This document shows, one piece after another, positions 6,328 through 14,041 of a stretch of DNA of 38,690 nucleotides. The DNA is from an uncultured archaeon (lineage in GTDB: Archaea; Asgardarchaeota; Hermodarchaeia; Hermodarchaeales; Hermodarchaeaceae), in NCBI GenBank assembly GCA_964347045.1, contig CAYFXC010000003.1:1-38690 (forward strand), read 5' to 3'. The number at the start of each line of letters is the position of its first letter. The stretch's first letter is position 1. Both the position numbers and the translations under genes were made by a program. Below the pieces are notes generated by a model. The model made no database searches, was not told the DNA's origin, and was given only the letters and a program-made list of their open reading frames with translations.

Positions 6328-7095
6328 ATGGCTGACAAATTTGTTTTACTTCTCGAGTTTTCCTCAGGAATTATCGAACCATTGCCCTTATCAACTGAAG
6401 CTCTAACAGAAGACCGAATAGTGATAGCTATTGATGAGTTAAAAGAACGTGTGTGGTTATGGCAAGGGGGTACAACCACTCTTGTTGAACGCCGTGCAGC
6501 CCAACGAAAAGCGCGGTCACTTGTTAGCGCAGGTTATCAGCTTGGTCCGTATAGAATTGGGCGAGATGTTACCAGTATTGAAATTATTGATGGAGAAATC
6601 CTAGACGATCCCGAAATCAAAGGATACTATGACCAATTAATTCACACGCTAAGTCAACAGTTTAAAATCACAGAAGGTGTACTCGGCCGATTTAGTGGAA
6701 CACCTTCTACGGCTCCTCCGCCAGCTGAACCCGCTCCTTCCAAAGCGCCTGCTGAAAAAACCATCGTGCCTACAGAAACGGTAGCTGAAGAAGCTCCAGC
6801 CAAATCTAGCTCCGAAATCATTGCTCCACAACCCTCCCGTGATTTACAAGATCTTGGAGTGATTCGGGTCGGGATTCTCATCTCTTCAATTCTTGACTTT
6901 TTTCCAATGTGCTACGTTAGTGCTACAAAAATTGAAGATGGCACTCGCTACTCAATAGAAGATCCAGATGGTATCATTTGTCAAGTCGAGGTCAGTCAAA
7001 GTTCGGTTCACTTTCTACAGCGATATGATTTTCGCGGAAGACGAAGTGATATACTTGGTCTTCTTCGTGACCGACTAGCCGCTGCAGACCTTTAG
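6328..7095 (+). CDS. gelsolin-like domain protein 1 (N-terminal gelsolin-like domain, P/A/E-rich linker, unknown C-domain)
   Basis: IVIAIDE..RVWLWQG....VERRAAQRKARSL matches the gelsolin repeat core (hydrophobic strand-D, W-x-G strand, long helix). Confidence 0.7.
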   Translation: MADKFVLLLEFSSGIIEPLPLSTEALTEDRIVIAIDELKERVWLWQGGTTTLVERRAAQRKARSLVSAGYQLGPYRIGRDVTSIEIIDGEILDDPEIKGYYDQLIHTLSQQFKITEGVLGRFSGTPSTAPPPAEPAPSKAPAEKTIVPTETVAEEAPAKSSSEIIAPQPSRDLQDLGVIRVGILISSILDFFPMCYVSATKIEDGTRYSIEDPDGIICQVEVSQSSVHFLQRYDFRGRRSDILGLLRDRLAAADL

Positions 7096-7299
7096 CATAC
7101 CAAGATTATCCTTTTTTTGCAAAAACTATATTAGATATTCTCGCCGGTGCATGTGCAGAGTCAACTTAATAAATGCGGTTACAAATTCTAAAGCAGATTT
7201 TGACAAAAACGCTTCTCCTCCCATGGTTTGGTGATGAATAAACTGTCAGAGTCGTTTCAAAAAATGTGTTTCTAACTCAATATAACCTAACGGAGTATA

Positions 7300-8028
7300 A
7301 TGCAGATGACACGGCTGGTAATGTTAGAAATTGGTGGCTTAGGTTTTGTCCGATCAATTCGTCCTGGTGCTAAAAAACTACGGGGTGATGTTTGTGTCGC
7401 TGTCGTTGATGAGCAAAATAACGCTCTTTGGTTTTGGATGGGCAGTGGAGTTCAATACGATAAACGACGAACAGCTAAGGCAAAAGCGGAACAAATCACC
7501 ACGGAAGGTCAACGAATCGGGGATGAAACCTTTGGACGCGGATATTCCCTTATTCTTCTCGACCAAGACAGCCTAGAAGATCCAACCACATCAAACAACT
7601 ACAATAATCTCATCGCTTTGTTGGAATCTCCAATGGAAATCAGTATCGTGCCAAATCCTAAAGGAACACTCATTGTGGGTCTCCTTCAAGGAACCGCTCC
7701 CTCGGCTCCTGTGCTCACAAGTGATCCTGCCGCTGCAGAAACTACAGCTCCACAAGAACCCGCTACACCAATTAAGCCCACATCAACCAAAAAGGCGACC
7801 AAACTTGATTTTGAAGCGGCTTTAATGGCAATCATTCGAGTTCATCATCAGGTCCATATCGAATACCGTAGCAAAGGCGATACAGAAGAAGTTTCCATCG
7901 AAAGCATCGATGGTCTCACTCACAAGATGAAAAGAAGCAAAGGCAAACTAACCTTTAAATGGGATTCTAAAACTCCTAAAGAGTATAAACAATTGGTCGC
8001 ACAAGAACTCAAAAACCTCGCCGGCTAA
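7300..8028 (+). CDS. gelsolin-like domain protein 2
   Basis: GDVCVAVVDE..ALWFWMGSG..YDKRRTAKAKAEQI; P/A/T-rich linker; alignable by eye to 6328..7095 at both ends. Confidence 0.72.
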   Translation: MQMTRLVMLEIGGLGFVRSIRPGAKKLRGDVCVAVVDEQNNALWFWMGSGVQYDKRRTAKAKAEQITTEGQRIGDETFGRGYSLILLDQDSLEDPTTSNNYNNLIALLESPMEISIVPNPKGTLIVGLLQGTAPSAPVLTSDPAAAETTAPQEPATPIKPTSTKKATKLDFEAALMAIIRVHHQVHIEYRSKGDTEEVSIESIDGLTHKMKRSKGKLTFKWDSKTPKEYKQLVAQELKNLAG

Positions 8029-8055
8029 TCCATCATTGAACACGGGCACGAGATA

Positions 8056-8628
8056 ATGAGCTCACTTTTTTTTGCGTTTACATTGATACTGTCATACTCA
8101 TTCATTGGTGCAGGTATCAAACTTCTTGACCAAGCTGCAGATCATCCAAATGGATTCCAGTCACACCAAACATTGCTTTGGTTGGTGACAGTCACGCTTG
8201 TAGTTCTTGTAAATCTCTGGGTCTACTATGATCTTTTCACTGCCGCCCTCGCCATAGGAATAATCATGGGATTAGTTGTCACCCGTAAAGTTAACAACAA
8301 TTATTTCTTTGTCCTAACCTTCGCCATATTACCTCTCAGTATTTTTCGAATCATTGACTTTGTTAACTTATTTTTCATTCTTCAGACAATCATCATAATC
8401 TTTCTTGCTTCAATAATAGATGAGTTACTCCACTCAACGGCCTCCAAGATTCAGTCCCCTCTCTTTCGTTGGATAATTGCTCGTCGTCCATTGTTGAAAA
8501 TCGTTGTACTAATACTACCTTTCTTTGGTTTATTGACCTTTATCCATACCATTGCATTCTGGGGCTTTGATTTTGCCTATGATTTCGTAACTCACTATTT
8601 TCGCGCCGCTCGTTTATCAATCAAATAA
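8056..8628 (+). CDS. polytopic membrane protein of unknown function
   Basis: About 5-6 hydrophobic segments; GAGIKLLDQAAD and IIDE polar motifs next to the membrane segments. Confidence 0.65.
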   Translation: MSSLFFAFTLILSYSFIGAGIKLLDQAADHPNGFQSHQTLLWLVTVTLVVLVNLWVYYDLFTAALAIGIIMGLVVTRKVNNNYFFVLTFAILPLSIFRIIDFVNLFFILQTIIIIFLASIIDELLHSTASKIQSPLFRWIIARRPLLKIVVLILPFFGLLTFIHTIAFWGFDFAYDFVTHYFRAARLSIK

Positions 8629-8675
8629 ATTTTTTCAGGCTAAGCAACTTGAACAAGTCGCCAAAGGCTATTTTG

Positions 8676-8687
8676 GAAAGGTTTAAG
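8676..8687 (+). promoter_or_regulatory. putative BRE/TATA promoter of 8731..8973
   Basis: GAAAGGTTTAAG about 45 bp upstream of the ATG; SD-like GAGGT just before the start. Confidence 0.5.
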
Positions 8688-8730
8688 TCGGCTCAATTGC
8701 CAAAGAACTACACGTAAGTGAGGTTTAATC

Positions 8731-8973
8731 ATGAAAGCAAACATTTCGCTTTCTTACAGAGGTTCCACTCGCGAAGAAAATGCGACAAAAACCGGTTGGA
8801 TTAATCTGCTTCTCAACCAACATGGACGAATAATTAGCAAATTACCTCTGGGAGATGGACGATACCATTTTGTCATTGAACTTGATGATCTCGAACGGTT
8901 CACCCAATCGCTTTTTGAATTCACCCGACAAAATCCATGGTTACGTGTGGAAAAAGTCTCAACCCATGCCTAA
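8731..8973 (+). CDS. small hypothetical protein, possibly ACT/ferredoxin-like fold
   Basis: 80 aa ORF filling an intergenic gap, with promoter and SD; beta-alpha-beta-beta-alpha-beta hydrophobic pattern. Confidence 0.6.
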   Translation: MKANISLSYRGSTREENATKTGWINLLLNQHGRIISKLPLGDGRYHFVIELDDLERFTQSLFEFTRQNPWLRVEKVSTHA

Positions 8974-8990
8974 AACCTACCTACAGTTTT

Positions 8991-10424
8991 TCACGCTAGA
9001 ATAAATCGATCTCCAATTCTTGGAGCTATTGCGGGTGATCGAAAAAGCCGTTTGGCAGTATTTGCAAGAGCTTTACAGGCTCTTGGGCTTCCATGAATGC
9101 AAAAAACGGTTTGTGGCGGCTTTCTTTTGAGGGAAAACAAAAATCCTAGTAATTCACGCTTGTCGGCATGAGCGGAAAAGCCATACAAACGTTCAATATG
9201 CGCGCGTACACGCTTTTTTCGTCTATAAATCGTGACATTTTTTGCACCTTGAACAATACGATGACCGAGAGTTCCTGGAGCTTGAAACCCAATGATCATT
9301 AGGTGAGTGTTTCTATCTTCGATCCGCCGAAAAAGGTGTCGGAGAATCCGCCCACCGTTCATCATCCCCGAACCTGCAACTATCATAATTGGGCCAAGTT
9401 GTTGACTTAGTCTATCGCTCTCATATTGTCTCTCAATATATTGAAGACCCTTGAAATCAAGGGGGGCGTCTCCAGATCTAATGAGGTTCCATGTTTCTTT
9501 GTCAAAACATTCTTTGTGGCGTTTGAAGATTTCTGTTGCCTTGATAGCTAAGGGCGAATCAATTGCAACTGGAATAACAGGAACACGTCTATTTTCCACA
9601 AGCAAGTTCAATGAATAGATTAGTGCCTGGGTACGACCAATGGCAAAAGCTGGCACTAAGATATGGCTTCGATGACGGTGTGCTTTGATGATTATTCGTT
9701 CAAAGCGTTTAATGGTTTTTGAGAATGGTTCATGAGCGCGATTAGCGTATGTGGACTCACAGAGAAGATATGTTGCCGCAGTTGGAAAATCAGGATCCCG
9801 GATAATCGGTGTATTTCTTCGCCCTACATCTCCTGTATAAACCAAGTGGATAACCTTTCCTCGTTCTTCAATCCATGTTTCGATAATTGATGATCCCAGA
9901 ATATGACCGGCATCTCGAAATCGTAAAGTCACATTTCCACGGAGGGTGGTTTTTTCTCCATAATTAACAATTCGCAACTGTTTGATAGTTCGTTCTGCAT
10001 CTTGTCTTGAAAATAATGGTTTGGTAGCAAACGCATGGTTGTTTTGTCGTGCTTGTTGGTATGAACGCGCTCTAGCAGCGTCCTCTTCTTCACTATCTGC
10101 CACATCTCTGAGAAGCATTGAACAAAGTTCAGAAGTAGCTGCTGACACGTAGATGGGTCCTCGAAAACCTGAACGGCTAAGAATTGGCAGTCGACCACAA
10201 TGATCGAGATGTGCATGGGATAAAATCACAAAATCTATTCTGGAGGCATCGAATGTAAAGACATGATTCCGTTGATATTGCTCTACAGACTTTCCCTGAT
10301 AGAGTCCGCAATCAATTAGAAACGATGTAGACTTGGTCTTAATCTTATAAAGGCTCCCTGTAACGGTTTGTCCCGCTCCATGAATGGATAATTCCAATGC
10401 GAATTGCTCCTCTTCGAGTGTCAA
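8991..10424 (-). CDS. beta-CASP MBL-fold ribonuclease (TTHA0252/bacterial CPSF-like)
   Basis: IDCGLYQG, SHAHLDHCG, DAGHILGS, YTGDVG, ESTYA, FSAHAD, IHG motifs; no N-terminal KH domains. Confidence 0.9.
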   Translation of the reverse strand: MTLEEEQFALELSIHGAGQTVTGSLYKIKTKSTSFLIDCGLYQGKSVEQYQRNHVFTFDASRIDFVILSHAHLDHCGRLPILSRSGFRGPIYVSAATSELCSMLLRDVADSEEEDAARARSYQQARQNNHAFATKPLFSRQDAERTIKQLRIVNYGEKTTLRGNVTLRFRDAGHILGSSIIETWIEERGKVIHLVYTGDVGRRNTPIIRDPDFPTAATYLLCESTYANRAHEPFSKTIKRFERIIIKAHRHRSHILVPAFAIGRTQALIYSLNLLVENRRVPVIPVAIDSPLAIKATEIFKRHKECFDKETWNLIRSGDAPLDFKGLQYIERQYESDRLSQQLGPIMIVAGSGMMNGGRILRHLFRRIEDRNTHLMIIGFQAPGTLGHRIVQGAKNVTIYRRKKRVRAHIERLYGFSAHADKRELLGFLFSLKRKPPQTVFCIHGSPRACKALANTAKRLFRSPAIAPRIGDRFILA

Positions 10425-10438
10425 AGAATAAAGCGAGA

Positions 10439-11368
10439 CTAACTAAAAAGATCGAAATCTGAAGATCCACTTTTCTTTTCTTTTTCTTCAGACCGCTCCT
10501 TTTCACTTTTTGTTAGTTCTGAGTCGCCCTCTTCTTCTTTTTTCGTATTTTGACTTATCTGAAATAATTGCCTACGCATGGAGTCTACAACAGAACCGGG
10601 TTTTTCTTCAGCTGAGGTTATGGGCTCAAGAGTTGCTAATGTGGACCCTATGTATACTTGTCCATCTGAAGTAAGTTGAAGTTGCTGGCCAAAGCACCGT
10701 GTAAAGGCATCAATATCTTCCTGCGCTGTCGCTCGAATCTGCGAAAAAAGAATTGCGTCCCCTTGACAATAGAACCGCATTTGTAGGCGAAGCACGGAAA
10801 CCAGAAACTCGTTTGGACCAATCGGGTTCATCGTGGCTTGGCCATAGCAGTCAGTCATTGCGAAAAGCACCTTTGTAGCTAGTTGTTCTTCATAAGTCAA
10901 TATTCGGCGACGAATTGGAGTTACTTGTCTAACGGGTTCAGGGACGATTGTTTGCTCAATAACTTCAACTTTGTCTTGGAATGATTCTTCAAAGGTTGAA
11001 ATTGGATCCTCTTCCTCTACAACAACAAGATAATCTGAGGTCTTAGGATTCTCCTCAAGACGTTTTTGTAGAAGGGATGCCTTTGGGTTCTTCAAATCAC
11101 CCGGTATTTCGATGAAATTAGTACATTTGGTCCCATAATGGATTTTGTCAACATGTGTTCCGTTTTTCATTATAAAACGAGCTTGACGAAGTGCAGTGGT
11201 TCGTTGCAGCATAGATGTTCCTCGACCCAGCCACACCCATACAATGCCTTCGGCTTCATCGACTATGAGAATGGCTCGTCCATCGACAAGGTGTTTGGGA
11301 TTCCAATGAAGAGGTTGCATTTCGCCTCCTTCGCCAAGGATTTCAATCATCCCAAGGTATTGCTTCAT
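10439..11368 (-). CDS. gelsolin-like domain protein 3 with charged tail ending DFDLFS
   Basis: AILIVDE..IVWVWLGRGTSMLQRTTALRQARFI; acidic linker; E/K/S-rich C-terminal tail. Confidence 0.7.
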   Translation of the reverse strand: MKQYLGMIEILGEGGEMQPLHWNPKHLVDGRAILIVDEAEGIVWVWLGRGTSMLQRTTALRQARFIMKNGTHVDKIHYGTKCTNFIEIPGDLKNPKASLLQKRLEENPKTSDYLVVVEEEDPISTFEESFQDKVEVIEQTIVPEPVRQVTPIRRRILTYEEQLATKVLFAMTDCYGQATMNPIGPNEFLVSVLRLQMRFYCQGDAILFSQIRATAQEDIDAFTRCFGQQLQLTSDGQVYIGSTLATLEPITSAEEKPGSVVDSMRRQLFQISQNTKKEEEGDSELTKSEKERSEEKEKKSGSSDFDLFS

Positions 11369-12851: not shown

Positions 12852-13361
12852 CTATTTCTCTCGGAGTTCCCACATACAGCTGTCGGCGCCCCACGTTTTA
12901 CATTGGACTTCTTCGCATTCGCTGTTGAACCCGCGGAGAGTCAGGACGTGTTGAAATACTCCACTTAAAATATTGCAGTATTTCAAACCATGAAATTCAT
13001 CTGACATCCGAATGTTTTCACAAATTGGACAATCATTAAAAACATAGACAATTTTCCTTTCGGCCTTATCATAGTATGCGTTATCAAAGGCTTTCCCCAA
13101 CATTACGCGAGTTGCCAAAGTGAATGTGTCAAGAAAACCATCAAAAGTGGTTGCATGTTTTCCAATTGTGTCGCTGTATTCAAACAACAAGGTTTCAGCC
13201 ATTGCGTTACCCAGCCGGAGTAGTTTCTCGTTAGCTAAATTAACATCCCCCTTACTATTAAGAAGGACGTCGTCTACAACTGCTGCAACCAAGGCTTGAA
13301 ATGCATTTAGTGAGGTTTTTTGCATCTTAAAATGCCAACCGATCCAACCTTTGACACCCAT
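12852..13361 (-). CDS. V4R-domain protein (Bet3/TRAPP-related fold)
   Basis: C-terminal CPICE...YCNILSGVF...EEVQCKTWGADSC V4R cysteine pattern; N-terminal LLRLGNAMAETLLFEY helix. Confidence 0.75.
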   Translation of the reverse strand: MGVKGWIGWHFKMQKTSLNAFQALVAAVVDDVLLNSKGDVNLANEKLLRLGNAMAETLLFEYSDTIGKHATTFDGFLDTFTLATRVMLGKAFDNAYYDKAERKIVYVFNDCPICENIRMSDEFHGLKYCNILSGVFQHVLTLRGFNSECEEVQCKTWGADSCMWELREK

Positions 13362-13426: not shown

Positions 13427-13912
13427 TTATACGCGTTTTTCGAAATCCACAAGTCCCCGCTTTTGAAGGTCTAAAAGCATTCGCATAGCGATAAAAAACT
13501 GTAGCCCCATTTTATCTGCAATTTCTTGGAGCGTTGTTTTTCCATCACATAAACTAAGCATGCGGAATTCGGTAATCGACAGTTTTTGCTTTTCCAAATC
13601 TGCGACAACACGAGGAACAATCCGATGACTTTTTGTGCCGACCATCCGAGTAGTTGGTGGAGCAGTAGGTTGAGGGGTTGTGCCTGGCTGAGTTTGTTTA
13701 GCCTCTACTTGATTACCTGCATGGATTTCGGAAACTTCGTGGCCACGCTCAACGAGATCTTGGTCAAGGTAAATTGTAATTACATGGGCCGGTTCTCCAT
13801 GGACGTAAGAGTAGGGAAATGGAAAGACGTTTTGTCGTTCAATGATATTGGGCGGGACGTCTATCGCAATATATGCCTTACATTTTTCGCAATAGGTGTA
13901 TACGACAGGCAT
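13427..13912 (-). CDS. putative Zn-binding domain plus C-terminal winged-helix protein
   Basis: CEKC...FPFPYSYVHGEPAH..IYLD N-domain, P/T linker, and LCDGKTTLQEIADKMG...LLDLQKRGLVDF wHTH; ATG 13912 preferred. Confidence 0.7.
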   Translation of the reverse strand: MPVVYTYCEKCKAYIAIDVPPNIIERQNVFPFPYSYVHGEPAHVITIYLDQDLVERGHEVSEIHAGNQVEAKQTQPGTTPQPTAPPTTRMVGTKSHRIVPRVVADLEKQKLSITEFRMLSLCDGKTTLQEIADKMGLQFFIAMRMLLDLQKRGLVDFEKRV

Positions 13913-14041
13913 ATCAATAGACTCCCAGGATTGTTTCAGAGTATAATGTAGAGAAAGCGTTCTTAACATTTCCTTCTGAAATACTTTAAGTCGGGATAAA
14001 TTCCAATTAATCTTGAATGCCTACTTTTTCTAGTATCCATA

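Follow-up and report, generated by a model that had tools for sequence, protein, structure and literature searches.

The locus considered here lies in a 38,690-nucleotide stretch of DNA from an uncultured archaeon of the Hermodarchaeaceae (Asgardarchaeota; GenBank assembly GCA_964347045.1, contig CAYFXC010000003.1, positions 1 to 38,690), called the window below. Three of its genes, all annotated as hypothetical, encode paralogous proteins, A, B and C. Paralogue A (6328..7095, + strand, 255 aa) is composed of a gelsolin-fold domain, a proline-rich linker and a C-terminal domain called Y. Paralogue B (7300..8028, + strand, 242 aa) has the same architecture, its Y domain being encoded by 7786-8025, and paralogue C (10439..11368, - strand, 309 aa) contains a gelsolin-fold domain (11015-11368) and a Y-fold domain (10661-10921). 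An earlier note on this DNA, made from the letters alone, had reported the three open reading frames (ORFs), the motifs that they share and a membrane protein ORF (8056..8628, + strand, 190 aa) that starts 27 bp after B, and all of these are present as described. Translation of B probably begins at the second Met (7306), where its database entry and most of its orthologues also start. Genomes labelled Hermodarchaeota, Hermodarchaeum yapensis or Promethearchaeota hold the nearest relatives of gene A.

That the N-domains of A, B and C adopt the gelsolin fold, as the earlier note supposed, is practically certain. They are homologous to each other (BLASTP expect values, E, of 6e-14 to 9e-6), and the family profiles of the three align pairwise at 97-98% probability. 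The AlphaFold2 (AF2) model of whole A has a predicted local distance difference test score (pLDDT) of 80 with a disordered linker, and its top Foldseek and VIA matches are gelsolins only. The best of them is ProGel of Thorarchaeota (7C2F; Akil et al. 2020, PMC7444086), with Z 12.4 and a root-mean-square deviation (rmsd) of 1.8 Å over 87 residues; Sec23/24 also match the fold, at Z 9.5. The family profile matches villin at E 4e-11. The Pfam gelsolin model recovers none of the three proteins, and neither Pfam nor NCBIfam has a family for them.

The gelsolin-homology domain of A (6328..6693, + strand, aa 1-122) was delimited from the AF2 model, the ProGel match and conservation. It contains a basic long helix (residues 52-68) and an additional C-terminal hairpin (112-122). 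After the long helix there is a family-specific β-hairpin insert (6532..6561, + strand; G-x-x-h-G-x-x-x-I-G), modelled as strands E70-72 and E75-77, which amounts to about 9 residues beyond ProGel, 1DGelX-type or 2DGel domains, as counted by columns in the aligned rows. The DWG motif is present (D36/W45/G47, invariant in A; D37/W46/G48 in B and C), its Asp being identified by inference from the ProGel alignment and lost in some distant B orthologues. The GxEP end motif has been lost.

These proteins belong to a distinct pan-Asgard gelsolin subfamily, named GH-Y here. An N-domain profile retrieves 93 clusters at E <= 1e-10 among 1.84 billion representatives. Y is found by profile in 50 of the 73 full-length clusters of the gelsolin-domain family; in about 15 of the 73 a short coiled-coil-like segment replaces it, as judged by eye, and in at least one genome this form is an additional paralogue. 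Surveying Asgard genomes with a C-domain profile, as the earlier note had proposed, gave matches in 189 of 301 genomes, mostly single copies, and the gelsolin-domain profile matches 201 of 301, largely in the same families. All 18 other genomes of the hermodarchaeal family carry three or more copies. Because the family is pan-Asgard and usually single-copy, three paralogues are not required for its basic unit. Members occur in Thorarchaeota (named as such), in Atabeyarchaeia, in families read as Loki from their Loki-type 2DGels and in a group that we take to be Odin. Among the genomes searched, the Y-bearing form turned up in just one of the Heimdallarchaeum family (1 of 29) and one of the Hodarchaeales type (1 of 21).

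In phylogenetic trees the family is separate from ProGel-like, X-type and 2DGel domains (support 100/99), and the separation persists in an alignment cut off before the insert, which leaves 66 columns only. A and B each cluster with proteins from outside the hermodarchaeal group. A recent triplication within this group was rejected, the A+B+C clade having a p value of 0.025 in the approximately unbiased test (p-AU; short alignments). An A+B clade is likewise rejected (p 0.003, for a grouping named after the tree was seen) and a B+C clade is not (p 0.21). The grouping of A and B with other proteins and the rejection of A+B+C indicate that the paralogues are old. Thus, of the "old expanded subfamily" proposed at the outset, the age holds, and the expansion has to be restated as a pan-Asgard and usually single-copy family.

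Variants of the gelsolin module were also observed. One protein (L104:766-2343, P0188) carries insert-bearing gelsolin domains as a tandem pair and a diverged end that resembles Y, and a second paralogue exists in the same genome. A sister module without WxG, with the same helix and hairpin insert, matches the family at 98% (hhalign); it occurs in this genome (C5:98431-98757, + strand), in L090, L098 and L140, and at C-termini in L141 and L116. In hermodarchaeal, Thor and Heimdall-group genomes the module is a protein of its own; one Hodarchaeales-type genome has it attached behind a 2DGel, and another genome behind a long coiled coil.

The Y domain of A (6835..7092, + strand, aa 170-255) is modelled as a helix, four strands and a helix (AF2) and is, of the three, the nearest to the single-copy Asgard form; its profile recovers relatives across Asgard. 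Direct profile comparison of the three C-domains gave less than 1% probability. A pan-Asgard Y profile built from non-hermodarchaeal members only matches B at 90% (hhalign, E 1.4e-6), a score reached by 0 of 60 shuffles, and a Y profile widened without B or C orthologues ranks B second-best of 11,260 genome ORFs (E 7e-5). The C-domain of C is modelled with pLDDT 94 and the same helix-strand order as in A (H-E-E-E-E-H), in a register equal to that of A minus 17, on which hhalign and secondary structure concur. Y is therefore homologous in A and B and only alike in fold in C, so that the C-domain which the earlier note saw in all three is shared at the level of sequence by the first two.

That this domain falls outside the named families has been borne out, because Y has no sequence relative in Pfam, NCBIfam or the PDB (PDB sequence searches included), and an Atlas feature search returned Asgard hypothetical clusters only, at about 0.8. 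Fold searches with the Y model of C gave nothing above background and no Foldseek match at E <= 0.001. Its best rows were KA1 domains, adaptin platforms and C-terminal domains (CTDs) of Integrator and CPSF, with Z <= 5.1, within background; for instance, 5V8W (Z 5.1, rmsd 2.5 Å, 62 aligned residues) and Chk1 KA1 (5WI2; Z 5.1, rmsd 3.4 Å, 70 aligned). This lack of a match does not establish a new fold.

Two further observations concern Y. Beyond its Y-fold domain, the C-terminal end of C (10439-10600, - strand) comprises a short, conserved amphipathic helix and an acidic tail whose last residue is Phe, likely a partner-binding motif. A second Y-containing family without a gelsolin domain consists of an N-terminal Y, a linker and a conserved C-terminal domain of no known family (L043:1492-2190, L044:1492-2190, L046:1495-2196, L129:1401-2072, L131:2471-3169), and such a protein could form heterodimers with the GH-Y protein that its own genome encodes.

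Judging from structure prediction, Y probably dimerises. Two copies of the Y domain of A, modelled with a 65-row alignment and compared with three controls, scored 0.82 against 0.00 for the best control, although such a score expresses model confidence and not affinity. The mark was reached by 20 of 30 same-chain pairs and 1 of 23 single-chain proteins among solved structures, counts that serve only as a rough guide here because the alignment was custom-made. Between runs, at least 95% of contacts coincide, and pLDDT is at least 86. In the model, strand 1 (C195-S198) lies antiparallel to its mate, so forming an eight-stranded sheet with crossed helices, and the two-fold axis passes G182 (codon 6871-6873) and I185 of helix 1. 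It is the hydrophobic dimer face that is conserved on the surface of Y. The equivalent of G182 is Gly, Ala or Ser in 48 of 48 non-hermodarchaeal Asgard members, and this small residue gives independent support for close packing of the helices.

The residues at and next to the axis differ in B and C. B has an invariant E172 (7813-7815) at the position of the axis Gly, and C an invariant K166 (10871-10873) at the position that touches the axis residue. These positions, 15 and 16 of Y, are charged in 0 of 48 other members, yet B always has the Glu (37/37) and C the Lys (41/41); the contacts listed in the A-A model are 16-15', 15-15' and 16-16'. Since B-B and C-C pairs would bury like charges and a B-C pair would form a salt bridge, the pattern suggests that A pairs with itself and B with C. 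A second complementary pattern, which counts for less, is seen at positions 11 and 23 (K168/R180 in B, E161/D173 in C). Y domains of the B and C types are confined to the hermodarchaeal family, in 18 of 18 and 17 of 18 genomes. On these sequence patterns, a B-C heterodimer formed through the Y domains is a tentative proposal with a little under an even chance of being right.

With respect to actin, the long helix is the most conserved element of the family, with Arg at W+10, W+11 and W+15 in 54, 58 and 63 of 69 members, and ProGel shares the Arg at W+15. ProGel binds actin via its main helix in a cofilin-like position; the monomeric protein binds weakly (dissociation constant, Kd, 337 µM) yet bundles filaments (PMC7444086). 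From the shared helix it is likely that GH-Y heads bind actin as well. Because ProGel alone is weak and still bundles, a GH-Y dimer would most simply be a cross-linker or an end-binder spanning two subunits.

The type II calcium site is numbered after gelsolin G1 (D66 and E97). Its residues in A are D29 (conserved in 37/38) and E54 (38/38); the Glu position is mostly Lys in B and always Gln in C, and other Asgard members lack the Glu. Thus, the comparison with gelsolin calcium sites that the earlier note had called for finds both type II side chains in A only, and the type I Asp (W+21) in none of the three (V66 in A, T67 in B, M67 in C); this position is Lys in 53 of 69 other members.

Overall, these data are best explained, by a modest preponderance, if GH-Y proteins are dimeric two-headed actin regulators. 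The Y domain (about 85 aa) would dimerise and so hold two gelsolin heads on flexible arms. Each head would bind actin weakly through its basic long helix, as ProGel does, dimerisation would add avidity, and the dimer would cross-link or bundle filaments or bridge the two subunits at the end of a filament. In this scheme the A of Hermodarchaeia would keep the ancestral homodimer, possibly tuned by Ca2+ via D29/E54, and B and C would probably form an obligate, Ca2+-independent heterodimer through the E172-K166 pair. The complete proposal, a fourth conserved Asgard gelsolin class of non-covalent two-headed cross-linkers or end-cappers, split in the hermodarchaeal group into a Ca2+-sensitive A-A form and a charge-coded obligate B-C form, is distinctly speculative and, taken whole, rather unlikely.

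Several observations weigh against this interpretation. The pan-Asgard Y profile gives C only 3%, a score reached by 2 of 60 shuffles and not significant; the register of C therefore rests on secondary structure. Positions 11 and 23 are not a listed contact and carry like charges in 7 of 48 single-copy proteins. B lacks the Arg at W+15, identity to ProGel is as low as 17%, and Sec23a has the gelsolin fold without shown actin binding (PMC7444086). The family gene adjoins no actin gene in the loci seen: here its neighbours are metabolic, and outside Hermodarchaeia a gene read by eye as an ATP-dependent DNA ligase is often beside it (L045, L047, L048, L050, L052, L085, L088, L134), an adjacency that suggests old synteny.

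The main rival explanation is a non-actin partner: GH-Y proteins would be dimeric adaptors whose head no longer binds actin and instead recognises a different conserved partner, in the manner of the Sec23/24 gelsolin domain. The deep divergence from all actin-binding Asgard gelsolins, the conserved insert and extra hairpin, the loss of GxEP, the missing genomic link to actin and the Sec23/24 fold match are all consistent with it. However, the best structural matches are the actin-bound ProGel and 2DGel, the long helix is the most conserved element, and the sister module is fused to a 2DGel, so this explanation is left as a minority one, with roughly one chance in five.

Improbable, at about half that weight, is a Y domain that resembles KA1 domains or adaptin platforms and tethers an actin-binding head to a membrane or partner, possibly via the membrane protein 8056..8628. 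KA1 domains bind acidic phospholipids, the Y model of C is likened to KA1 domains and adaptin platforms, and the membrane gene is 3' of B in all hermodarchaeal loci examined and probably co-transcribed with it. However, Z values around 5 are background, and the conserved surface of Y is its hydrophobic dimer face. The membrane protein has no family in Pfam or NCBIfam, and the Atlas clusters nearest to it come from Methanobacteriota and Thermoplasmatota (0.94), which is no more than a lead. Its synteny is limited to Hermodarchaeia; in the Thorarchaeota genomes compared, its relatives and the GH-Y gene are on different contigs. It also diverges faster than A (36-58% versus 43-86% identity). The functional tie drawn in the earlier note is thus not sustained, and this protein is probably a bystander outside the system.

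Slightly less probable still is that A, B and C are further monomeric severing proteins of the published 1DGelX type. Like GH-Y, the 1DGelX of Thorarchaeota has one gelsolin domain, a low-complexity linker and an extra C-terminal domain, and is Asgard-wide (PMC7444086), and Lokiarchaeum ossiferum has unclassified single-domain gelsolins (10.1101/2025.11.30.690169). Severing and nucleation by 1DGelX are independent of Ca2+. However, 1DGelX has a gelsolin domain with 35% identity to ProGel and an X modelled as a coiled coil or as disordered (PMC7444086), while the Y of GH-Y is an α/β domain predicted to dimerise and unrelated to X. The Thor member of the GH-Y family matches ProGel at E 0.83 only, in contrast to another Thor protein, of the type of C8:21874-22740 and C20:19458-20423, which is 36% identical (32/88). 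These last two genes, single-gelsolin-plus-domain proteins of this genome (L013, L014), are probably of the 1DGelX type, with an X that by eye is β-rich and conserved and not a coiled coil. The Y, B and C profiles do not match X-type proteins, and the tree separates the types. Consequently, GH-Y is very likely not the published 1DGelX, judged against the ProGel identity described for that protein. Finally, the single three-subunit heteromer once imagined for A, B and C is very improbable: the genes are held within 3.6-5 kb in both hermodarchaeal genera, but the symmetric Gly is kept in A, the C gene lies on the other strand, and the modelled interface is two-fold with one face, so that each Y takes one partner, in keeping with A-A homodimers and possible B-C heterodimers.

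Other known proteins help to place GH-Y. It shares with ProGel a single gelsolin/cofilin core, DWG-type residues, a basic long helix and the absence of a type I Ca2+ site, and differs in its 17% identity, hairpin insert, extra C-terminal hairpin, linker and Y, and separate clade; ProGel is a gelsolin domain alone, of about 90 aa, whereas A, B and C have 242-309 aa and a second folded domain. Asgard 2DGel proteins (7C2G, 7C2H, 7WHF, 7WHG; PMC9433394) have two heads per unit, as GH-Y would if dimeric. Nevertheless, a 2DGel carries both domains on a single chain, together with a WH2-like motif and multiple Ca2+ sites, while GH-Y has one domain per chain, heads that would be joined non-covalently, and type II ligands in A only. 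B35_Gel of L. ossiferum, a single gelsolin domain with a further region, includes proteins that co-precipitate with Lokiactin, with no role assigned and "one disordered domain" (10.1101/2025.11.30.690169; PMC13716822); compared by description only, this group may include a GH-Y member. TBP-like and KA1-like small domains, such as the IntS9-IntS11 (5V8W) and CPSF73-CPSF100 (8BA1) CTD heterodimers, combine a helix and a β-meander like Y, and in these two it is paralogous C-terminal domains that pair; with Z <= 5.1 within background and no sequence similarity, this is a resemblance only. Literature searches, in an incomplete library, found no description of the GH-Y architecture, so within the literature searched a dimeric Asgard gelsolin subfamily of this kind is apparently undescribed.

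The surrounding gene order is M24 peptidase, A, B, membrane protein, an 80-aa conserved hypothetical (8731-8973, + strand), a beta-CASP nuclease (8991-10424, - strand), C and HMG-CoA reductase. Compared in 12 fetched loci, each as far as its sequence reaches, this order is kept in all except L011, which lacks the nuclease. In two loci of a second hermodarchaeal genus both intervening genes, which lie outside the proposed system, are absent, and an unrelated ORF of about 150 aa, of unassigned family, separates A and B (L132:3667-4128, L133:3320-3778); the 204-bp gap between A and B in the window holds no such ORF. The synteny of A, B, the membrane gene and C was found in hermodarchaeal loci, and that of the membrane gene did not extend beyond Hermodarchaeia. 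The 80-aa protein is 84-96% identical across the genus, with no match in Pfam or NCBIfam. A promoter and terminator scan, by a method ill-suited to archaea, gave chance-level results. On the flanks of this region the window also encodes typical Asgard proteins, namely a Ras-family small GTPase, a V4R/TRAPP-like protein and a winged-helix protein (190-777, 12852-13361, 13427-13969), and the same genome encodes actin (C30:2930-4042) and two 2DGel proteins (on C2 and C5).

Asgard cells crawl and have actin-filled protrusions, although most of the regulators known from them are profilins and gelsolins (PMC13716822). GH-Y, which escapes both Pfam and NCBIfam and occurs in two thirds of the Asgard genomes surveyed, is a candidate filament cross-linker or capper. 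If the proposal is true, it would be an archaeal parallel to eukaryotic dimeric cross-linkers and to heterodimeric capping protein, built from unrelated parts. The rarity of the Y form in Heimdallarchaeum-family and Hodarchaeales-type genomes bears on what the eukaryotic ancestor kept, and the B/C pair would offer a precise test case for the transition from a homodimer to an obligate heterodimer.

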